Shown piece after piece: positions 8,499-64,000 of a stretch of 64,000 bases of DNA. The DNA is from Candidatus Sulfotelmatobacter sp. (GTDB lineage Bacteria > Acidobacteriota > Terriglobia > Terriglobales > Acidobacteriaceae). Numbering within the stretch: position 1 is the first letter of the stretch; the number at the start of each line of letters is the position of its first letter. The stretch covers positions 9,835 to 73,834 of the forward strand of contig DASXEG010000134.1 of NCBI GenBank assembly GCA_036490235.1, read 5' to 3'. A program made the translations under genes and the position numbers. The notes beneath the pieces are model-generated. The model had not been told where the DNA came from, did no database searches, and was given only the letters and a program-made list of their open reading frames with translations.

Positions 8499-10160
8499 AT
8501 GAAGGTTTCCTTTCTAGCTTTGCCGGTCCTTGTGCTTGCCACTGTTCCTTCCTTTATCAACGCAAATGCGCAAACCTCTGGCGACTCCCAGAATGGCTGC
8601 GCATTACACGGAACCGTGATCGACTCCAAGACCGGGCAGCCGGTGAGAGGCGCCGAAGTCACGCTCCGTGGTTGGGGATTGAGTTCCTCAGGATCCTGGG
8701 TGGGCGGAGTGGGAAATCGCTCCGAGCCCACGGCCGCAATCTCTGACTCGGAAGGGCATTTTGCATTTGACAATCTCACCCCCGGACGATATCGAGTCAC
8801 AGCGTCTCGAAACGGTTATGTAAGCCGCGGACCCCGCCCAGGTGCAGGAGGGAGCTTGATTACGTTGTCTTCCGGCCAACAATCGTCCGACACGATTGTC
8901 CGGCTCACTCCTTCTGCGGTGCTCGCGGGCCGCGTCACGAGTGAGGGTGATGAACCTGTTCCGAACGTTTCAGTCGAAGCCATGAAGTATAACTATCAAA
9001 ATGAGCGGCGTCAGTTGACCGAGGTTGGAACCTCGACGACAGATGATCGCGGCGAATACCGTATCTGGGGTCTGCCTCCGGGAAAGTACTACATTCGCGC
9101 CACGCATCCCAGGGGGCAGACCGCGCGGCCCGGTGGCTTGCTCTATGTCCCTATTTTCTATCCCGGAGTGACCGATCCTTCGCGCACGCAACCGGTCGAT
9201 CTTCATCCCGGCGATGAAGCCACAGGCATTGATTTGAACTTTGTCTCGATGCACTCGGTCCGCGTAAGCGGACGAGTTCTGAACGCGAATTCTCAGCCCG
9301 AAAAAGGAGCGCAGGTTTCTCTCGTCGGCGGCTCGGGTAGCTTCACGTTCACTGCGGGCCAGGCTTCCTCAGACGCCAAAGGCGCGTTCGAGATTCGTGC
9401 CGTGCCGCCGGGGTCCTACACGCTCATCGCCGAGCAGTTCGGGAACGGCGAGAACGATAAGGTGATGCGCGGCCGGTCGCCGCTCGACGTGGGCGAGACG
9501 AATATTACTGATGCGGAAGTTGTCACGGGCCCGGGAGCGAGCGTAAGTGGGCACGTGCGCATCGAAGGAAAAAACTCTGCCGATCTCTCGAAGCTCAGCG
9601 TCATCCTCGATCCGCAAGATGATATGGCGTCGCTCGGCTTTGCCCCGGATGTGTCGAATGTTCACGTCCTGCCCGATGGCTCGTTCCAGTTTCATGACGT
9701 GCCTGAGGGAACTTATCGCATCAACGTGATCCCTCTGCCGAACGGTTATTACCTGAAGCCCGGTGGAGAAGGCGACGCGGTAGAAGCTGGCGTGAAGGTA
9801 GGGCGGAACCGTTCCGCAGCAGTAGACCTGACTTTGAGCGCCGGAGCGGGGCGCGTCAGCGGCACCGTCAGCAAAGATGACCAGGCATTTCCAGGCGCGA
9901 CAGTTGTGCTTGTACCCGATCCTCCGCGCCGAGCCGAGCCGCGATTCTACCGGCAGGCCCTCACGGATTCCGGCGGCCACTTCAATATTCAGAACGTGAT
10001 TCCGGGAAATTACAAACTCTTTGCATGGGAAGAAATTGACCGGGGAGCTTATTTCGATCTCGACTTTCTGCAGTCCTATGAGGATTCGGGCAAGGCTGTG
10101 AGCATCGAGGAAGGTTCAGCGCCCAATGTTGAGCTGGAGTTGATTCAGGGAAGCGAATAG
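8499..10160 (+). CDS. Secreted protein with repeated carboxypeptidase-regulatory-like domains
   Basis: The signal peptide is MKVSFLALPVLVLATVPSFINANA. Repeated G.V.D..G.P..GA.V.L / F.F..L.PG.Y modules are present (e.g. HGTVIDSKTGQPVRGAEVTL, FAFDNLTPGRYRV, FQFHDVPEGTYRI, FNIQNVIPGNYKL). Confidence 0.75.
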   Translation: MKVSFLALPVLVLATVPSFINANAQTSGDSQNGCALHGTVIDSKTGQPVRGAEVTLRGWGLSSSGSWVGGVGNRSEPTAAISDSEGHFAFDNLTPGRYRVTASRNGYVSRGPRPGAGGSLITLSSGQQSSDTIVRLTPSAVLAGRVTSEGDEPVPNVSVEAMKYNYQNERRQLTEVGTSTTDDRGEYRIWGLPPGKYYIRATHPRGQTARPGGLLYVPIFYPGVTDPSRTQPVDLHPGDEATGIDLNFVSMHSVRVSGRVLNANSQPEKGAQVSLVGGSGSFTFTAGQASSDAKGAFEIRAVPPGSYTLIAEQFGNGENDKVMRGRSPLDVGETNITDAEVVTGPGASVSGHVRIEGKNSADLSKLSVILDPQDDMASLGFAPDVSNVHVLPDGSFQFHDVPEGTYRINVIPLPNGYYLKPGGEGDAVEAGVKVGRNRSAAVDLTLSAGAGRVSGTVSKDDQAFPGATVVLVPDPPRRAEPRFYRQALTDSGGHFNIQNVIPGNYKLFAWEEIDRGAYFDLDFLQSYEDSGKAVSIEEGSAPNVELELIQGSE

Positions 10161-15643: not shown

Positions 15644-15819
15644 ATCTTATCCCCTGAGTTGTGCTTGCTTGTCGCCCTGCGGGGGACGCCGAATCGGCGG
15701 TTAAAGATCACGTGAAGATGCAGGTAGCGTGCTCCCATCTTATCAAACTGGGACAAGCCTGGATTCGCACAACCGTTCGGGCGAGTGGCACCGTCGTGTG
15801 GTGACTTTGGTCATCGGAG

Positions 15820-15896
15820 TGGGGGCCCCGGGCGGAGTCGAACCGCCGACCAACGGTTTAGGAAACCGCTGCTCTATCCAACTGAGCTACGGGGCC
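15820..15896 (-). tRNA. tRNA-Arg (anticodon CCT), CCA encoded
   Basis: The reverse complement folds as a cloverleaf: GGCCCCG-TA-GCTC-AGTTGGATA-GAGC-A-GCGGT-TTCCTAA-ACCGT-TGGTC-GGCGG-TTCGACT-CCGCC-CGGGGCC-C-CCA. The anticodon loop TT-CCT-AA gives CCT. Confidence 0.92.
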
Positions 15897-16003
15897 GCGT
15901 GAAATGCGGGGGCTGGTGCCCTTCATTATCGCACGCCAATCGTGCACATCTTCGGGACGGTTTGCCCGCCGCGCCGCAAATGATTTACCCTCGCGGCAGT
16001 CCA

Positions 16004-17152
16004 ATGAATCCAACCCGCGCCAACTCCGGCACTGCCTCCGATCGTTTTTCCCATGACATGCGCCGGGAAATTTACCAACAGCCGCAGGCCATCGCGAAGA
16101 CCGTTGATCAACATCTGAAGGACGACATTCTTTTTCCCGGCGAACTGCATGCCATCGAAAGCGCGCTGCTCACATTCGAGAAGCTGATCATCGCCGCCAG
16201 CGGCTCCAGCCGCCACGCAGGATTAGCCGGCGAAATCATGATCGAGGATCTTTCAGGCGTTGCCGTCGACGTGGAATACGCCAGTGAATACTGCTACCGC
16301 TCCACTCATGCCGCCGTCGATCCAATCGTCATGGTGGTTACGCAATCCGGCGAAACCGCCGATACCATCGCGGCCCAGCGTGAAGCCCTTACGCGCGGCG
16401 TAAAGACCATCGCCGTGTCGAATGTCGCAGATACAACCATTCCCCGTGAGGCGAGTGCAGCGCTGATCACCGGCGCGGGCCCGGAGATCGCGATCCCGGC
16501 GACAAAGAGTTTCACAACTCAGGTAACAATTCTTTATCTGATGGCGCTTTTTCTTGCGCGCCGCCGCGGACGCATGACCTCGGAAGTGACGCGCACTTAC
16601 CTGCAGAGCCTGCTGAGCTTGCCCGAAGCGATCGGTCGCAGCCTTCGCTCCTGGGACGAGTTGGCCGAGCGTTTCGCCGAAAAACAATATCACGCCGAGA
16701 AATTCCTTTATCTCGGACGCGGAGTGCACTACGCCATTGCACGCGAGGGCGCGTTGAAGCTGAAAGAAACTTCGTACGCCCATGCCGAAGGCTATCCCGC
16801 CGGGGAGCTAAAGCACGGCCCCAACGCGCTGGTGGATGAAAACCTGCCGGTGGTTGTGCTGGCGACATTCGACCGCAACGATCCCGACTCGGTTCTGCGA
16901 TATCGCCGTACCCTTGATGTGATGAAAGAAGTGAGATCGCGCAATGGACGGCTGGTGGCGGTTGGGACCGAGGGCGATGACGAGATCGCTGCCATTGCGG
17001 ATGAAGTTTTCTCCGTTCCCCCGGCTCCTGAGTTGTTGCTGCCTATTGTGGAAGTCATCCCGCTGCAGTTGTTCGCTTACCATGTAGCCACGAAAAAAGG
17101 CTACGACGTCGACCGCCCGCGAAATCTGGTGAAAGCGGTGGTGACGGAGTAA
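16004..17152 (+). CDS. SIS-domain sugar-phosphate isomerase/deaminase (GlmS isomerase-half-like; no glutaminase domain)
   Basis: MRREIYQQPQAI, SGSSRHAG, VVTQSGETADT and the C-terminal LQLFAYHVA...G.DVD.PRNLAKSVTVE-like tail (PRNLVKAVVTE) match the two SIS domains of GlmS/AgaS-type proteins. The start is set at ATG 16004 because the longer ORF overlaps tRNA-Arg. Confidence 0.8.
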   Translation: MNPTRANSGTASDRFSHDMRREIYQQPQAIAKTVDQHLKDDILFPGELHAIESALLTFEKLIIAASGSSRHAGLAGEIMIEDLSGVAVDVEYASEYCYRSTHAAVDPIVMVVTQSGETADTIAAQREALTRGVKTIAVSNVADTTIPREASAALITGAGPEIAIPATKSFTTQVTILYLMALFLARRRGRMTSEVTRTYLQSLLSLPEAIGRSLRSWDELAERFAEKQYHAEKFLYLGRGVHYAIAREGALKLKETSYAHAEGYPAGELKHGPNALVDENLPVVVLATFDRNDPDSVLRYRRTLDVMKEVRSRNGRLVAVGTEGDDEIAAIADEVFSVPPAPELLLPIVEVIPLQLFAYHVATKKGYDVDRPRNLVKAVVTE

Positions 17153-57525: not shown

Positions 57526-57601
57526 GGCCAGGTAGCTCAGGTGGTAGAGCGCAGCCCTGAAAAGGCTGGCGTCGGCGGTTCAACTCCGTCCCTGGCCACC
57601 A
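57526..57601 (+). tRNA. tRNA-Phe (anticodon GAA), CCA encoded
   Basis: The cloverleaf is GGCCAGG-TA-GCTC-AGGTGGTA-GAGC-G-CAGCC-CTGAAAA-GGCTG-GCGTC-GGCGG-TTCAACT-CCGTC-CCTGGCC-A-CCA. Confidence 0.92.
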
Positions 57602-57756
57602 TGTTTTCAATCATTTACCTCCGTTCGGAAATCCCAACCTGTTCCAATTTGTTCCAAAAAAAATAAAGCTGGACCTACCGGGTTCGCCTGCTCAGTAGAT
57701 GTTTGCCCCCAGACTGCAAGCTCCAGCGCCGATTTTCGCCTTTGGAGATTACCCAA

Positions 57757-58185
57757 ATGACAACCTTCACTTTTCGAGCGCCGGAAGAGATAACGACAAG
57801 CCTTACTTCCGCCGAGATGCGTTCATGGCTGCATGATTTTATTCACCAGCCTCATTCGTTGCCGCCGGATCCAGGTTCAGGGTACGGGCGTGTTTCGTTA
57901 ACGCTGCCAGCAGATGCCGTCAATGCTGTTGCCACGTACTCGAACTCGTCCACCAGTTCTGCTCTTCGGCGGATCGCAGTAGCGCGCTTGGGCCTGCGAA
58001 GTCTTAGCAGTCCCGAGGATTACAGCGCCCCTCATCGTTCCCCGGCAGCTCCTGCGTCCGGAAGGTCGCAAGACAATTCGCGATCAGGAGATGAAGTCGC
58101 CGGAGCACTGGTGTCGTTTGTCATTTGGATCATTTTCGTCGGAATTGCAATTCTCGCTGCCTCGAGCAGGAAGAAAGATGGTTAA
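57757..58185 (+). CDS. Hypothetical protein, possible ribbon-helix-helix-like N-terminus with C-terminal TM anchor
   Basis: ATG 57757 is preceded by ggagattacccaa. RVSLTLPADAVNAVATYSNSSTSSALRRIAVARL resembles an RHH strand-helix-helix. The C-terminal GALVSFVIWIIFVGIAILAASS is a TM helix. Confidence 0.5.
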   Translation: MTTFTFRAPEEITTSLTSAEMRSWLHDFIHQPHSLPPDPGSGYGRVSLTLPADAVNAVATYSNSSTSSALRRIAVARLGLRSLSSPEDYSAPHRSPAAPASGRSQDNSRSGDEVAGALVSFVIWIIFVGIAILAASSRKKDG

Positions 58186-58299
58186 AGTCGCATGACAAGC
58201 ATGACTTAGAAAAACCCTATTTACGATGAATTGCTAATTGCCACGGTTTATGGACCCTCCAATTGTCTAGTTTTTGCTGCTTCGTAGATTCTCGGTGAA

Positions 58300-58599
58300 G
58301 TGTTGGAACAGAACATGTCACATTTACCTCGTTACAACAGGTTGAAACAACGTGCGCTGAGCGTATTCGAATGTCATGGTGGCTGGATCAGGCCGACAGA
58401 GTGGGCCGTTCTCGTTGGTTTCTATCCGATCCGCGCCGCGTATTCCTATTTACTTCGGTTACATCGTTTTGGGCTTTTGGAGCGTTTTAAGACAACTGCA
58501 GGGATCGTGTATCGGCTCTCTGAGCGTGGGGCTGGACGACTGGAATGGCTGACGAATGTAGCGAAAACAAGGGCTGCATCCGTGCCAAGACGTCGATGA
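58300..58599 (+). CDS. Hypothetical small protein, possible winged-helix DNA-binding fold
   Basis: WIRPTEWAVLVGFYPIRAAYSYLLRLHRFGLLERFKTTAGIVYRLSERG resembles an HTH plus beta-wing pattern. The start is GTG 58300 or ATG 58315. Confidence 0.45.
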   Translation: MLEQNMSHLPRYNRLKQRALSVFECHGGWIRPTEWAVLVGFYPIRAAYSYLLRLHRFGLLERFKTTAGIVYRLSERGAGRLEWLTNVAKTRAASVPRRR

Positions 58600-58675
58600 G
58601 TGTTAGCCACATTTCTTAGCCAAACTGAGGTTCCGCAGAACGGAGACTCAAGACTATGCAGGCAGTTGCCGTTTG

Positions 58676-59632
58676 CTATTTCGTGGGTTTCGATTGGCTA
58701 ACCAAACGTCCTCTCGGCTCCATGCCTTCGAACTCAAACGGAAGGCCCTTATCCAGGCCGAGAGACAAAGAGATCGCAAGCAAACTTCGTCCAGCCGCTG
58801 AGTTTTGAGCTTCTTCATTGATACTGCACCACTGGCACATTCCGGATTCCGATAGATCTGCCGGTTCAAAACATCCTCCACAGACACTCGCGATGCTCTG
58901 AAAGTCATCTCCGGACCATGTCGAGGCGCGCAGATCTGAATCCGTAAAAAATGGCTTGAACGTTCGAGCACCGATTCGTAGCTGAACGATTGGAACGCTC
59001 CACTCTCTAGCACGTGCTTTGCATAAGTCTTTGACACTCGACTCCGCGTTAGGTCCTAAAATGACGCAGCGAAGCGCGGCTCGACTGAATCGACCAAGCA
59101 AAACACCGTCGAGATCCTCTACTGCATTCGGTGGAACCACAATTCTTCTTTCAGCTTCATACTGCCAGTCGGTCCTTTTCCTAAAGTATGCGGCCCGGTG
59201 CGCCGCTGCTATTAGAGCCAGAGCGTGTCTACGTTTCCCAGTCATATACGCATATTTAAGTATTCCCGAATCTATCGTTGCGGGGCCATCCGCATATTCG
59301 ATGTCACCCGCATACGCGATCGGCAGTTCCTTCACTAAGACGTCCTCGTCAAGCCCAAGGCATATCCCTGCACATTCTTTACCATAGTGTGCCCACATTA
59401 CGACCGAGTCCGGTCGCCTTGAAAAGCACGCTACCGGAGTTTCGACCACCTTCCCGAGAAAATACGCATAAAATGCGCGGTGCTCTTCGCTTTCCAGCGG
59501 TGGATCGGGCTGCAGGAATAGCTCGTAGGGATCGTTGTAGTGTTTTGGAAGCCCAAAGCGAATTGATAAGCCATTGGCACTCACGAATACTTTTGAGACC
59601 GAGTCTGGACCTACGTATTTGAATATCAACAT
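58676..59632 (-). CDS. DUF2971-family protein with C-terminal CxxC...CxxC tail
   Basis: The DUF2971 pattern is IFKY, RFGLPKHYNDPYE, VACFSRRPDSVVMWAHYGKECAGICLGL, KRTDWQYEAERRIV. The tail reads SVCGGCFEPADLSESGMCQWCS. It starts 22 nt after the upstream stop, with a purine-rich gaagagaaagaagc before the ATG. Confidence 0.75.
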   Translation of the reverse strand: MLIFKYVGPDSVSKVFVSANGLSIRFGLPKHYNDPYELFLQPDPPLESEEHRAFYAYFLGKVVETPVACFSRRPDSVVMWAHYGKECAGICLGLDEDVLVKELPIAYAGDIEYADGPATIDSGILKYAYMTGKRRHALALIAAAHRAAYFRKRTDWQYEAERRIVVPPNAVEDLDGVLLGRFSRAALRCVILGPNAESSVKDLCKARAREWSVPIVQLRIGARTFKPFFTDSDLRASTWSGDDFQSIASVCGGCFEPADLSESGMCQWCSINEEAQNSAAGRSLLAISLSLGLDKGLPFEFEGMEPRGRLVSQSKPTK

Positions 59633-59654
59633 GCTTCTTTCTCTTCGATGGTGA

Positions 59655-62600
59655 TCAAGACAGAGTTTTTTCCAAGATCTGCATAACTTTCGGTTTGATT
59701 ACCTCGATATCTACTTCTCCCCTTAAGAACTGGTACACGACCTCGATCAGGACTTCGCCGAGCAAGCCTTGAACAGCGGAAGCCGACCCTGTTCCAGCGC
59801 GCCACTGTTTGCCAATGTCTTCTCGGCAGATCACAAACGTTGGATCGTCTTTTCCAGGTTTGGAAGGTCTAGTTACGGCACAGATTGTGAAGTCTGGAGG
59901 AAAATAAGAAATCATGTCTTTAGGCATTGACTCGATGTTGCCGACGTAAATGTCGAGCTCACGCCTCGGAAGCTCTGGTACGGAAAGCATCTGAGCAATG
60001 CTTTGCTCGAAACCCTTGAAAAACATTGCAAGCAAAGCTGAAGCTGTGAAAGTGTCGATACGACCATCTAGACACGTAATCGTGACGAGGGCGGGCTTAC
60101 GCAGATTGAGGCCGACGACCCAGGATGAACCCTCTTGTTTAAACCTAAAGTGAAGCCCACTAATTCGGTCCTGTATTTTGTCACCAAGTTGCACCAAATG
60201 GCGAAGAGCCAAGCCGTCCTCAGGAATGCTAGCCAAAAGCTGCATCGCTGGGAAAAGAATCCTCGAAGCCTCTGCATCCTTAGTTTGAGCTGAAAGCTGC
60301 TTCAGAACACGCCCGAATAGAAAACGCGCCACAGGCTGCGGGAGATCTGCAAACATGAATCGGAAGTGCAGTCCGAAAAGCCTAATGGCATGGTCACTGT
60401 GAACATTCCCTAACATGATGTCGATGCAATCAAACAACTGCTCTGTGGCGGGCTTCTTCGCAGCGGCTGTCAGGCCGTAAGCCAGATTGATGCAACCGAT
60501 GTATTTGTCGGGGCCCAAATTCTCGTAGACACATGTCGAGAGCGCATCCACAGTCAGCCTGGATTTTTCCTTGATATCCGTCGAAGCGGCAGCAGCCTTA
60601 GCGTAGGATTCTGCTGCGTTGTCCCACGATCTCGCTGAATAGTGACAGTCTCCGACTTCTTCAAGAGCATCGGCCAGCCCAGTTGAGGCAATGGAGCCCT
60701 CTAGGAGAGCGACAGCAACCTTGGCATGTTCTAGCGCCAAACGATTGTTGCCCTGCGTGCGATATATACCTGCAGTGAGTCTGGCAGCAGATGCCTCGAG
60801 GCTCTTGTCGCTAGACCTACGACCGAGATCTCCAGCTGCAGCGTACTCTGTGATCGCTGCATCCAGTTCGCGTTTGTCTCTGAGCACGTTCCCAACATTT
60901 AGACGATTAATGCCAGCCAGGTTGAGGTCTCCGAGTTCCTCTCCAATTTGCACTGCCTCACGACCATAGGAAAGTGCTTCCTGGAACTGTTTCTTGCGTC
61001 GCAGGGTCCGCACCATGTAGTTGCACAACCAGGCTCTCTCACGCTGGTCCCCTGACTCCTGCTGCTGCTCCTGAAGCTTTTCGATCAGCACTATTGCTTC
61101 CGTTTCTCTGCCGGGGGTCTCTGCCAATGCCGACGCCATATTTCGAATAGAGACGGACACGCCGTAAACGTCTCCGAGATTTTCGAAAATCTTCAGTCCT
61201 CGTTCGGATACAGCGAGAGCCTCTGGAAATCTCTTCGTCCGGGTAAACAATACACTCAACTCAGTCGTTAAACGTCCAGCAGACCAACGGTCTCCAGTTG
61301 CTAAGTATTCCTGTTCTAGTTTCTGCAACATCTCAAGGTATTCAAGGGACAGGGTTGATTTGGCTAAATAGATTGCGCGTACTTCACGTGCACGCAAATT
61401 CAGGATTGGATCACCAGAGCTACTGGCGACCCCATCAACCTCGGCAAAGACAGCGTCCAGCTCCGAAGTCCGACCTGTGTGGTGCAGCGCGTGGGCCCGG
61501 GAAAGAAGCAGAGTCATCAAATCCTGGGGATCCGACTTTTTCCGTGCACTCTCCAGAATGTCATCAACAATGACAAGCTGTGACTTAAAGTCGCCTCTTC
61601 TCTGGGCATCAAACAGTGCGAGGCGCGAGATCGACTTCGCAGCAGACTTGTCTGCCTCGCGAAGAACAAGAAATGCGTGGAGATAGTCGCCACGCGCTCT
61701 TAGAAGTGTTGCGACACGGCCACTGTAATATGCAAATTTACTCGGGCTTGTGGACAGCTGCTCTCGAATCGTGAGTCTCTGGTGTTCATGTCGGAGCGCA
61801 TAGCCATTGGGGAACTCCGCGACGAAGACTTGAGCTCGTTGTAGCGTATCCGTCATTTCTTCAAGGGGCCCGCCACCCTGTCCCACCAATCCAACTAGCT
61901 CTACAAGAGAGATTCGTTGATTGGCTATAGCCAGATACGAGGCCAGTTCGCGAGCTAAGGGCTCCAGCTTGCGCCAAGCGTCTAATTCATACTCGCGAAA
62001 ACTCTTTTCAGAAGCGACTTCGGGCGATTGAGAAAAATACAGAAGATATAACGGATTGCCCGCGGACTTCTTATAGATCTCCTCTAGTTCTTCCCCTGAC
62101 AGTTCCTTGCCATGGCTCGTCAAGAACTCCGTTGCCTCCGAGAAAGAGAGACCAGGAACCGTAAAACGTGTGTGTCCAAATCGCGCATCTGCAATCCTGA
62201 TGCTGTAGATCAATCTTTTCGTTTTGCTAGCAGGCCCAGCATTTTTGAGAAAAGCTGCCACGAACTCGGGGTCCGAACAATCGTCGATCACTAATGTGAA
62301 AGTCTCGGCGGTTCGCCATTCTTCCAGGAGAGCTGAAAATGCGCTGGTTGCGTCGGCGAAATACCGCGTGTTGGCGCCTCTTGCGGAAGCCAATTTGTTG
62401 GTGACCACAGCTGCAAGCTCATGATTGTCCAGCTGGGTTGCGCTTACGAAAAGAAAACCATTGTCCTTCGCAACTGTGGCTAGAAATACGGTTTTACCTA
62501 TTCCCAGTTCCCCAGAGACCTGGAGAACGTGGTCGGACGAAAGTTGCTCCAGCAAGAGGTCAGCGAGTTTCTTGCGCATCAGTAACGACTTCGGGGCTGG

Positions 62601-63122
62601 AATAAGACCCGATACAGCTGCAGCTGCATCTGTGTGGACTATGGCTTCTAGACGCTCTGCTTCGTGAAAGCGCTCGGTGACTTCGGCTTCAATATCTTCA
62701 CGAATCCTCTCATAGAGTTCCTCAGGGTTGCGATACCTAGAATATGTAATCTCCGATTGCACTTCCTTCAACATCGCGGACAATCGCGGATCTCGATCCT
62801 GGGCAGGATCAAGCACGTAGACGAGTCGAGGCATTCCCCTTTGACTCGAGCGGCGCAACTCGTCTTCGATCCCGGAGATTGCTGCTCCAGGTGCTACCCA
62901 GCCGTACCCATTCCGGTAGATGCTTATGAAAATGTCAGACTGGTCTAATTTCCCTAGATATAGCGCTCTTGGTGACACTGATCGAGCGCCGATGTGCTCG
63001 AATAGAATTGCGTCGTGATTGAGGGACTCGATTGCGCGCTTTGCCGCGGAACGCTCGGCCGCGCACTCTCCGATAGTCGAACTCACGAAAATTTGCAGCT
63101 TCTCCTGAATCCGTTCAGACAT
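59655..63122 (-). CDS. DUF4062 / P-loop STAND NTPase / TPR-repeat protein with unassigned C-terminal domain (1155 aa)
   Basis: aa 8-105 match the DUF4062 pattern (LQIFVSSTIGECAAERSAAKRAIESLNHDAILFEHIGAR...SDIFISIYRNGYGWV...ISGIEDELRR...PRLVYVLD). Walker A GELGIGKT is at aa 204-211 (nt 62490-62513). Walker B TFTLVIDD is at aa 274-281. A GNPLYL motif follows as in NB-ARC/STAND. aa ~600-880 are TPR-like helical repeats. The last ~280 aa have no motif I recognise. Confidence 0.8.
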   Translation of the reverse strand: MSERIQEKLQIFVSSTIGECAAERSAAKRAIESLNHDAILFEHIGARSVSPRALYLGKLDQSDIFISIYRNGYGWVAPGAAISGIEDELRRSSQRGMPRLVYVLDPAQDRDPRLSAMLKEVQSEITYSRYRNPEELYERIREDIEAEVTERFHEAERLEAIVHTDAAAAVSGLIPAPKSLLMRKKLADLLLEQLSSDHVLQVSGELGIGKTVFLATVAKDNGFLFVSATQLDNHELAAVVTNKLASARGANTRYFADATSAFSALLEEWRTAETFTLVIDDCSDPEFVAAFLKNAGPASKTKRLIYSIRIADARFGHTRFTVPGLSFSEATEFLTSHGKELSGEELEEIYKKSAGNPLYLLYFSQSPEVASEKSFREYELDAWRKLEPLARELASYLAIANQRISLVELVGLVGQGGGPLEEMTDTLQRAQVFVAEFPNGYALRHEHQRLTIREQLSTSPSKFAYYSGRVATLLRARGDYLHAFLVLREADKSAAKSISRLALFDAQRRGDFKSQLVIVDDILESARKKSDPQDLMTLLLSRAHALHHTGRTSELDAVFAEVDGVASSSGDPILNLRAREVRAIYLAKSTLSLEYLEMLQKLEQEYLATGDRWSAGRLTTELSVLFTRTKRFPEALAVSERGLKIFENLGDVYGVSVSIRNMASALAETPGRETEAIVLIEKLQEQQQESGDQRERAWLCNYMVRTLRRKKQFQEALSYGREAVQIGEELGDLNLAGINRLNVGNVLRDKRELDAAITEYAAAGDLGRRSSDKSLEASAARLTAGIYRTQGNNRLALEHAKVAVALLEGSIASTGLADALEEVGDCHYSARSWDNAAESYAKAAAASTDIKEKSRLTVDALSTCVYENLGPDKYIGCINLAYGLTAAAKKPATEQLFDCIDIMLGNVHSDHAIRLFGLHFRFMFADLPQPVARFLFGRVLKQLSAQTKDAEASRILFPAMQLLASIPEDGLALRHLVQLGDKIQDRISGLHFRFKQEGSSWVVGLNLRKPALVTITCLDGRIDTFTASALLAMFFKGFEQSIAQMLSVPELPRRELDIYVGNIESMPKDMISYFPPDFTICAVTRPSKPGKDDPTFVICREDIGKQWRAGTGSASAVQGLLGEVLIEVVYQFLRGEVDIEVIKPKVMQILEKTLS

Positions 63123-63999
63123 TCAATGGCTCCAGAAGATTTAGCTGCGCGAGTTTCCTTTGAAGGTTATCCAGATCTAGCGATGAGATCGTCTGTCGCT
63201 CTGCTTCCAGCAGGGCAATTGCATCCAGTTGTACCTGCGCGATTATTTGTTCTGTGGAGAATCTTGAGATTTCAGGCGTATCTGATCTCTCTTCTCGCCC
63301 TTCGAGTGCCTTCGTTACTCCACTGGTTAATTCTTCCGCAGTTAGGTTAGGGTAGAAAAGCAAGCCATCGAATAGAGATGCACTCAGAAGCAAGTTGCAT
63401 GCTGCTTGTTTGACCTGCCATTCTTTGACGCCCCTCGATTGCAACACATTCATCATTCCTGCGTACCTCCCAGCCCGGATACGTTCAATCGTTACCGGGA
63501 AGTATCGTTCAAGCATCCTAGTTCTATGTCGGAAGTATTCCTCGGGTTGCTGGGGTTCCGGGGCGGGCAGAGACGAAAGAAAATCTCTCTTCTGGTGCTT
63601 TCTGATAGGCTCCGAATTCGGTTTGTTCCGGAGCAACGAGTAGAAGCTGGTGCCCGGCAAGATGGCATCCTCATCAAGGAAGTCCGCTTCGAACTTTAGA
63701 ACTGGAGCAACTTCATCCAAAGGATCAATGTTGTTAGGCGCTGGCGTACTAGGAGTTTCTAGCACGGCCGCACCCAGCAAAAACGGGGAGATCAAGAAAG
63801 CTTGCTTGTATTGCCGTAGTTCTTCAAGGGCTGGGTGGCGGGTGTCAAACTGTTTGATATAGCTTCCCCCAAATAGGATCGTAGAGTAAATGCGATCTGA
63901 TCCTGTGAGATCATGAGTTGTCCTACTTGGCTCCCGCTCGATGCACAGTAAGTAGCCACCATCCTTTAGGAAGATAAATGTGAGCTTAACTGCATCCCC
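63115..63999 (-). CDS. Hypothetical protein, 5'-truncated by the window edge (first visible gene of the island operon)
   Basis: My manual translation shows the frame of ORF 63115..63795 stays open from 63796 to 63999 (GDAVKLTFIFLKDGGYLLCIEREPSRTTHDLTGSDRIYSTILFGGSYIKQFDTRHPALEELRQYKQAF then LISPF...). The listed start at 63795 is a TTG. Its stop TGA (63115-63117) overlaps the ATG (63120-63122) of the next gene as ATGTCTGA. Confidence 0.65.
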   Translation of the reverse strand, partial: GDAVKLTFIFLKDGGYLLCIEREPSRTTHDLTGSDRIYSTILFGGSYIKQFDTRHPALEELRQYKQAFLISPFLLGAAVLETPSTPAPNNIDPLDEVAPVLKFEADFLDEDAILPGTSFYSLLRNKPNSEPIRKHQKRDFLSSLPAPEPQQPEEYFRHRTRMLERYFPVTIERIRAGRYAGMMNVLQSRGVKEWQVKQAACNLLLSASLFDGLLFYPNLTAEELTSGVTKALEGREERSDTPEISRFSTEQIIAQVQLDAIALLEAERQTISSLDLDNLQRKLAQLNLLEPLNV

Positions 64000-64000
64000 G

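Follow-up and report, generated by a model that had tools for sequence, protein, structure and literature searches.

A probable two-gene NAD+-depleting module of the NIR-STAND type, with a private C-terminal domain and a coupled upstream partner, on a tRNA-Phe island of Candidatus Sulfotelmatobacter

DUF4062 is a TIR-like NADase domain that converts nicotinamide adenine dinucleotide (NAD+) into ADP-ribose and nicotinamide; it occurs in the Swarozyc defence system, where E97 is the catalytic residue of KpSwz, and in human TEP1 (Osinski et al., 10.64898/2026.05.01.722283). The domain has been renamed NIR and was found first as the N-terminal effector of PsAvs2 from Pseudomonas chlororaphis, a DUF4062-STAND-TPR protein by which NAD+ is depleted on infection, for which E108 is needed, and whose toxicity is triggered by terminase (Le Mouellic et al., 10.64898/2026.09.04.749371). 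In the Evangelion system, defence is lost in the F11A and E87A mutants of the founding member Eva01 (Ibarra-Chavez et al., 2026 preprint). The literature on NADase activity and anti-phage defence thus covers Swarozyc, Evangelion, Vulcan, Vesta, human TEP1 and the Avs2 protein (DUF4062-STAND-TPR); the DUF4062 domains of KpSwz, PsAvs2, Vulcan, Vesta and TEP1 are NADases, and the equivalent glutamate is needed in each. Here, a gene for a protein of this type, and the gene directly upstream of it, are analysed in a 64,000-nt stretch (the window) of Candidatus Sulfotelmatobacter sp. (contig DASXEG010000134.1, positions 9,835 to 73,834).

The gene is a single ATG-to-stop open reading frame (ORF) of 1155 amino acids (aa) on the minus strand (Table 1); residue numbers refer to its product, compared public loci carry L-numbers and compared proteins carry P-numbers. 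A first-pass annotation, made from the letters of the window, had called this ORF without stating its strand, and the ORF list and translation show the call to be real. The architecture given there, namely DUF4062 at the N-terminus, then a STAND NTPase and TPR repeats, and last a further C-terminal domain that could not be assigned, had been read correctly; besides the strand, the conserved and coupled partner gene and the defence island at tRNA-Phe had been missed. DUF4062 at the effector position of a STAND protein has already been described (PsAvs2), hence there is no novelty in that feature. What is new is a private C-terminal module and an obligatory upstream partner, both on a mobile island, which make the locus a rare and widely scattered two-gene variant of the NIR-NLR proteins. 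In our judgement, the two genes probably form an anti-phage module that acts by abortive infection through depletion of NAD+ and is carried by an integrative island of ∼12 kb at tRNA-Phe.

PsAvs2 and the 1155-aa protein have their domains in the same order: the DUF4062/NIR domain with its catalytic Glu (predicted in the window protein) at the N-terminus, the STAND NTPase in the centre and a sensor of helical repeats at the C-terminus; by analogy, hydrolysis of NAD+ into ADP-ribose plus nicotinamide and abortive infection would be expected here too. The two differ in that PsAvs2 is a single-gene system in which terminase is sensed by an Avs2-type sensor, whereas the window protein carries a private alpha/beta module after its repeats, has an obligatory upstream partner and gives no Avs match in PADLOC; unlike that of PsAvs2, its NTPase is closest to the PH0952/NB-ARC-type STANDs. 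PADLOC version 2 includes the AVAST/Avs types I–V. Membership of Avs1–5 was considered, and the tripartite effector-STAND-sensor layout is present; with no PADLOC Avs match, the protein was not filed as Avs.

A search of 5.8 billion proteins returned ∼33 full-length relatives (1150–1175 aa; down to 26 % identity), which cover the whole query including the C-terminus, together with hundreds of shorter DUF4062-NB-ARC-TPR proteins whose match is limited to its first 13–29 %. Residue invariance was counted in an alignment of 28 full-length family members (alignment A1). Between distant pairs, identity was highest in the NIR domain (0.57, compared with ∼0.28 outside it), lower in the NTPase (0.29) and the C-terminal module (0.27), and lowest in aa 866–965 (0.16). 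A shorter variant of ∼917–995 aa, in which the NIR domain, NTPase and C-terminal module are kept and the repeat region is reduced, was observed in Polyangiales (L035, L038; P0263, P0275). Public gene calls of the Joint Genome Institute (JGI) for the same gene begin at Met97 and give a product of 1059 aa (L007 9469–12648, L008 6955–10134; also P0013 and P0014); this start drops DUF4062, and the protein is therefore annotated merely as a "TPR repeat protein". The later start was apparently chosen by the JGI caller so as not to overlap the partner gene by 8 nt. The result is an annotation trap, in which public calls conceal the predicted NADase domain of exactly this gene.

The N-terminus matches Pfam PF13271 (DUF4062) over aa 10–90 with E=6e-18 and 65.3 bits, far above the gathering cut-off of 24.7, and covers profile positions 1–80 of 82, which confirms the DUF4062-like region proposed in the first-pass annotation. 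Within the domain S14, S15, E19, E23, R24, E42, R47, R52, Y55, G74, S83, G84 and E88 are invariant in the 28-member alignment, as is F12 (28/28, like E88). No solved DUF4062 structure was reached by sequence in the PDB for the mapping of residues, and Eva01 (plasmid pMW2, NC_005011, 3863–4837) served instead: in a MAFFT alignment of 16 diverse sequences (Eva01, the window protein and 14 diverse relatives), E88 shares a column with Eva01 E87 and F12 with Eva01 F11, and both columns are invariant. Conserved residues of the kind that the first-pass annotation had proposed to look for in a DUF4062 alignment are present: E88, the predicted catalytic glutamate, and F12. That annotation is outdated in holding DUF4062 to lack a demonstrated biochemical function, NADase and anti-phage activity having been shown in preprints of 2026; the TIR/nucleoside-deoxyribosyltransferase-like fold that it named agrees with the literature (10.64898/2026.05.01.722283; 10.64898/2026.09.04.749371). 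By homology and by analogy with the characterised domains, the window domain is predicted to be an NADase. Swarozyc, Evangelion, Vulcan and Vesta also carry DUF4062, as an NADase effector with the conserved F and E; in these systems the domain is coupled directly either with a phosphatase gene or with a region of auxiliary, HEAT or ligand-binding type, and they lack a STAND NTPase and a TPR array as well as the C-terminal module and the partner of the window locus.

The NTPase is divergent, with intact P-loop motifs and no Pfam match to NB-ARC, NACHT or AAA_16 above the gathering cut-off. The family profile matched, among PDB sequences, the STAND protein PH0952 of Pyrococcus horikoshii (6mfv; E=3.9e-13; query aa 198–478, chain 29–312) across the nucleotide-binding, helical and winged-helix domains, and a plant NLR (8yl6; E=2.6e-4). 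PH0952 is the best NTPase relative of solved structure and has a TPR sensor likewise; it is not known to carry an enzymatic effector at its N-terminus or to act in defence. Homology was also found to a large family of "predicted ATPase" proteins of the layout DUF4062-NB-ARC/AAA_16-(PF25872)-TPR (830–1030 aa; e.g. P0036, P0041 and P0053), the NIR domain and nucleotide-binding domain of which are homologous to those of the window protein: aa 7–344 align by BLASTP with P0041, a DUF4062 protein that passes the NB-ARC cut-off, at 34 % identity (E=1e-32), and the catalytic Glu falls in the same column. Unlike the window protein, they are shorter and pass the Pfam NB-ARC cut-off; the homology ends after the nucleotide-binding domain, and they are not among the matches of the C-terminal module. 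The STAND assignment is sound despite the failed Pfam thresholds because of the PH0952 profile match and the homology to P0041. The call in the first-pass annotation stands on weaker ground than it implied, Pfam AAA_16 and NB-ARC lying under their cut-offs, and the DUF4062 and STAND matches are both significant. The motifs quoted there (GELGIGKT, LVIDD, GNPLYL) were all found, with GNPLYL 74 aa past Walker B. R309 is present in 26 of the 28 family members, and H445 is a candidate for the winged-helix-domain histidine by its position 235 aa past the P-loop lysine. The helical repeats that the first-pass annotation had placed after the NTPase are borne out by three Pfam TPR_12 matches (E=7e-12); two of the three repeat strings that it quoted are exact, and the third is wrong by one letter, since it starts PEALAVSERGL and not AEALAVSERGL. 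Scans of the large protein with NCBIfam and PADLOC gave nothing specific.

An AlphaFold2 model of aa 867–1155, built on a 23-sequence alignment, reached a predicted local distance difference test score (pLDDT) of 89.5 and a predicted template-modelling score (pTM) of 0.91; it is made up of helices to about aa 986 and thereafter of a compact alpha/beta module. The region is conserved in all full-length relatives and, as modelled, is a real folded domain of ∼290 aa, so that the extra C-terminal domain of the first-pass annotation is upheld, as is its lack of a family assignment: Pfam, NCBIfam, PADLOC and PHROG gave no match, and profile comparison with PDB sequences matched nothing but designed helical bundles, and these in the helical portion. 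The Foldseek search suggested in the first-pass annotation was run on this model; against PDB and BFVD it returned nothing at E≤0.001 (root-mean-square deviation in BFVD above 18 Å), and its one lead is Upx (PDB 9wuf; E=0.033, probability 1.00, query TM-score (TMq) 0.33, 171 columns), which is weak. Upx is described in the literature as a single-protein, dual PD-(D/E)XK, terminase-sensing anti-phage protein. It is anti-phage, as the window protein is predicted to be, and is the sole high-probability Foldseek neighbour of the C-terminal region; it differs in that there is no sequence similarity, and in having neither NTPase nor NADase.

A HMMER search of 1.84 billion cluster representatives with the profile of the C-terminal module (aa 966–1155) identified 195 proteins. 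All 48 full-length ones have the same architecture with a DUF4062 N-terminus, 90 are N-terminally truncated fragments of that architecture, and four carry 52–86 unaligned N-terminal residues. The module is seen only at the C-terminus of the NIR-STAND-TPR architecture and is therefore private to the family. Some relatives appeared to lack it, their tblastn matches covering aa 7–825/856 only; this was rejected, as a local search with hidden Markov models (HMMs) finds a divergent module.

The partner gene is cut by the end of the window; L007 matches the window identically over 6624 nt and supplies the complete 388-aa ORF. GGAG stands 7 nt before the ATG of the NIR-STAND gene, and the 8-nt overlap of the partner stop codon with this start codon recurs in L001, L002 and L009, with an overlap of 4 nt in L006. 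The arrangement is repeated beside relatives of 65, 38, 30 and 26 % identity, and homology links the upstream proteins of these loci. When 185,579 species genomes were scanned, 31 loci were obtained, and with local HMM searches the partner (∼390 aa) was found directly upstream of the large gene, on the same strand and abutting or overlapping it, at 40 of 40 loci; every complete large gene among them has the C-terminal module. The hosts, of at least six phyla, are Acidobacteriota, Gemmatimonadota, Verrucomicrobiota, Lentisphaerota, Marinimicrobia, Myxococcota and many Alphaproteobacteria.

The partner family has few members (22 matches, on the same contigs as NIR-STAND homologues). No Pfam match was obtained for five orthologues scanned, and the full-length partner gave none in PADLOC, Pfam or PHROG; its profile had zero matches among PDB sequences. 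The structural model, for which P0125 was the target, consists of an alpha/beta and a helical domain besides a basic N-terminus that is disordered; Foldseek found no structural neighbour of it in the PDB (best probability 0.16). The partner was also considered as a paralogue of the C-terminal module, which was rejected (hhalign probability 0.1 %). Broken genes were observed at a few loci: three ORFs stand in place of the large gene in an Acidiferrales metagenome-assembled genome (MAG; L019 5968–9507), a frameshift lies close to its C-terminus in a Brevundimonas MAG (L036 about 9000–9100), and one in-frame stop interrupts the partner in a Longimicrobiales chromosome (L005 and L017 8724–9965). 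These are possibly decayed copies (pseudogenes) or sequencing errors.

The probable NAD+-depleting module is built on what was observed of domain identities, motif conservation, strict pairing, exclusivity of the C-terminal module and island context; NADase activity, trigger, oligomerisation and contact of the partner with the C-terminal module are inferred, the first three by analogy with PsAvs2 and with STAND proteins in general. On this basis, the large protein would be an NLR-like STAND NTPase that is kept auto-inhibited by its C-terminal half, that is, by the TPR array, the variable segment and the private module. Recognition of an infection cue by this half would relieve the auto-inhibition, the NTPase would drive nucleotide-dependent oligomerisation, and the NIR domains clustered in this way would hydrolyse NAD+, so that the infected cell arrests. 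The partner would be produced in a fixed ratio to the large protein by translational coupling; binding to the large protein is most likely, with the private C-terminal module as a plausible site since partner and module co-occur exclusively, and the partner would act as co-sensor, adaptor or restraining subunit. A more specific form, to which we give a rather low probability, is that module and partner together make up the sensing and control unit: the partner would dock on the receptor C-terminus as guardee, decoy or adaptor, and the NADase would fire when a phage modifies, removes or binds it. If true, this would be a hetero-oligomeric "guard-type" bacterial NLR and not a direct pattern-recognition Avs.

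Several points weigh against an NAD+-depleting two-gene defence module. The TIR-like, flavodoxin-type fold of the N-terminus is carried over by analogy from the literature. The Pfam STAND models stay below threshold (AAA_16 17.9 bits against 32.6, E=0.0048; NB-ARC 14.4 against 23.5, E=0.023), and neither protein was matched by the PADLOC defence models, apart from a generic TPR model on the large one (E=2.5e-4). Conservation of the C-terminal module is close to that of the NTPase (0.27 vs 0.29), which is unusual for a fast-evolving phage-recognition surface. The model of the partner is of moderate quality (pLDDT 72, pTM 0.51), and what speaks for its binding to the large protein is co-occurrence. 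No relative was found on the viral contigs of IMG/VR. In favour of the module, by a raw listing of neighbours, defence genes and mobile elements lie beside the other loci (AbiE, integrases, the type IV secretion system of an integrative and conjugative element (ICE), Mrr with a methylase, a PNP-domain protein, Gabija GajA, and SIR2, PIN, HEPN and STALD genes), as a BglII-type endonuclease gene and an Aristaios-like gene do beside the window pair.

Strict pairing also resembles operons in which sensor and effector are split. TIR-superfamily enzymes are able to make signalling nucleotides, as in Thoeris, and the NIR domain might by such a route produce a signal that activates the partner as effector; the compact alpha/beta and helical domains modelled for the partner could bind a ligand. 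This is unlikely, as every characterised DUF4062 domain yields ADP-ribose and nicotinamide with bulk depletion of NAD+, no effector domain could be recognised in the partner with Pfam, PADLOC or PHROGs, nor a fold match in the PDB, and the 8-nt start/stop overlap suggests a stoichiometric complex and not a catalytic relay. The C-terminal module invites another alternative, in which it would be a degenerate PD-(D/E)XK-like nuclease or nucleic-acid binder related to Upx and would serve as second effector or nucleic-acid sensor. Its secondary-structure order (helix-strand-strand-strand-helix-strand, model residues 107–196) resembles that of a PD-(D/E)XK core, acidic residues are conserved at D/E997, D1019 (invariant) and E1055, and the sole high-probability structural match is itself a dual PD-(D/E)XK defence protein. 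We hold a dual effector to be improbable nonetheless: the third strand reads TITxLD and lacks the lysine of a catalytic (D/E)xK, the acidic residues lie at non-canonical places, and Foldseek returned no canonical nuclease; the Upx match has a low TMq and an E-value beyond usual thresholds, and finds no counterpart at sequence level.

NADase toxins are commonly paired with cognate immunity proteins, and the order of a small upstream gene followed by a translationally coupled large gene for a toxic enzyme, always on or beside integrases, ICEs or Rep genes, would suit an addiction module: the partner would inhibit the NADase-STAND protein in the manner of an antitoxin, and the pair, instead of sensing phage, would mainly stabilise the island by post-segregational killing or serve conflict between elements. 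That this is so appears quite unlikely, given that the partner, at 390 aa, is bigger than would be expected of an antitoxin, that auto-inhibition of STAND proteins normally occurs in cis, that a conserved sensor-type TPR array and NTPase switch would be superfluous in a simple toxin, and that defence genes are among the neighbours. A transcription regulator of the MalT/AfsR type, in which the STAND-TPR core acts through a DNA-binding C-terminal domain, might be read into the weak AfsR matches in NCBIfam and among PDB profiles and into the precomputed Pfam label TPR_MalT on some relatives. The AfsR matches, however, are confined to the TPR repeats, no DNA-binding fold was matched by the C-terminal model, and the N-terminus is a predicted enzyme domain with a conserved catalytic Glu. 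No helix-turn-helix, LuxR or SARP domain was found at E≤1 in Pfam or NCBIfam, in the C-terminus, where the first-pass annotation had looked to a LuxR/SARP-type domain as the sign of a regulator, or elsewhere, nor was a DNA-binding domain found in any library searched; a LuxR/SARP-type regulator was rejected, and the regulatory explanation is largely excluded and highly improbable.

The island that carries the probable NAD+-depleting module spans ∼12 kb between exact 49-bp direct repeats (L007 2727–14749), of which window positions 57554–64000 are seen here and ∼5.5 kb lie beyond the window end. The second att copy stands ∼12 kb off (L007 2727–2775) next to the integrase (L007 2883–4142), and the G+C content changes from ∼0.55 in the flanking chromosome to ∼0.50 past tRNA-Phe. 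The genes are, in order, the integrase, a weakly Rep-like gene (Rep_trans/G2P-like), a gene for a 489-aa coiled-coil protein, a BglII-type endonuclease gene, the partner, the NIR-STAND gene, a DUF2971 gene and two small ORFs. The BglII-type restriction endonuclease (177 aa; Pfam E=4e-45) overlaps the preceding coiled-coil gene by 4 nt (L007 6011–8010); the coiled-coil protein gave weak LmuB/JetC/EH_Signature-like matches only. A DNA methyltransferase was not seen among the island genes, and the two may be an unusual nuclease-plus-SMC-like pair and not a classical restriction–modification system.

DUF2971, a DarT-like ADP-ribosyltransferase family, is known from the literature as a domain of the validated lactococcal antiphage system Aristaios, which has an ADP-ribosyltransferase fold. 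The DUF2971 gene of the island lies 22 nt downstream of the NIR-STAND gene, and its product matches PADLOC PDC-S31 (E=8e-18) and phrog_1762 (E=2e-26). The presence of an NAD+-consuming candidate ADP-ribosyltransferase beside a predicted NADase is curious; other loci do not keep this pairing. As a component of the system the gene was rejected, being absent from the other loci examined, and only the partner and the NIR-STAND gene therefore form the unit.

Two proteins encoded near distant family members, a 653-aa PNP_UDP_1-domain protein (L006 7277–9238, minus strand) and a 1074-aa DUF7379-TPR protein (L001 13955–17179, plus strand), look like further candidate defence genes. Elsewhere in the window, a tRNA-Arg (CCT) at 15820–15896 on the minus strand lies inside the span of a listed 455-aa ORF (15785–17152, plus strand), the start of which is therefore probably over-extended.

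Table 1. Features of the NIR-STAND locus and its island, in window coordinates.
Feature	Position	Strand	Basis
NIR(DUF4062)-STAND-TPR-C-terminal-module gene, 1155 aa + stop	59655..63122	-	ORF list, translation, domain matches, alignment A1 (28 full-length members)
NIR/DUF4062 TIR-like NADase domain (predicted activity), aa 8–105 (Pfam aa 10–90)	62808..63101	-	PF13271 E=6e-18; most conserved part of the protein
Codon of E88, predicted catalytic glutamate	62859..62861	-	invariant 28/28; aligned with Eva01 E87
STAND NTPase module (nucleotide-binding, helical and winged-helix domains), aa 186–480	61683..62567	-	profile match to 6mfv; BLASTP to P0041
Walker A GELGIGKT, aa 204–211	62490..62513	-	G207, G209, K210 invariant 28/28
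Walker B LVIDD, aa 277–281	62280..62294	-	D280 invariant 28/28
GNPLYL (helical-domain GxP motif), aa 355–360	62043..62060	-	P357, L358 invariant; G355 27/28
Codon of H445 (LRHEH), candidate winged-helix "MHD-like" histidine	61788..61790	-	invariant 28/28
Helical/TPR repeat array, aa 481–865	60528..61682	-	Pfam TPR_12 x3 (E=7e-12), TPR_10, SNAP; profile matches to LGN/GPSM2, OGT and AfsR TPR regions
Variable helical segment, aa 866–965, linker from TPR array to C-terminal module	60228..60527	-	all-helical in model; least conserved (0.16)
Family-private C-terminal alpha/beta module, aa 966–1155	59658..60227	-	confident model; private by profile search
8-nt overlap ATGTCTGA, partner stop codon/NIR-STAND start codon	63115..63122	-	sequence read directly
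Conserved partner gene, cut by window end	63115..64000 (full 388 aa, L007 8022–9188, which would be window 63115–64281)	-	open frame to window edge; L007
DUF2971 gene, 318 aa, Aristaios/PDC-S31-like candidate ADP-ribosyltransferase	58676..59632	-	Pfam DUF2971 E=2.5e-6
tRNA-Phe (GAA), island integration site	57526..57601	+	ARAGORN
49-bp att repeat (tRNA-Phe 3' part)	57554..57602	+	exact k-mer diagonal, L007 and L008

The NADase activity of DUF4062/NIR has only lately been shown to be common to bacterial immunity and human NLR-like proteins of the TEP1/NWD1 type. For two parts of the family, the partner and the C-terminal module, no relative with a known function could be detected; its hosts are Acidobacteriota, Gemmatimonadota, Verrucomicrobiota, Myxococcota and Alphaproteobacteria of soil and aquatic habitats. 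The NIR-NLRs characterised in bacteria consist of one protein each; to these the family would add a rare, phylogenetically wide two-component version, and with it a concrete, testable case for the control of an NLR-type switch by a second subunit.

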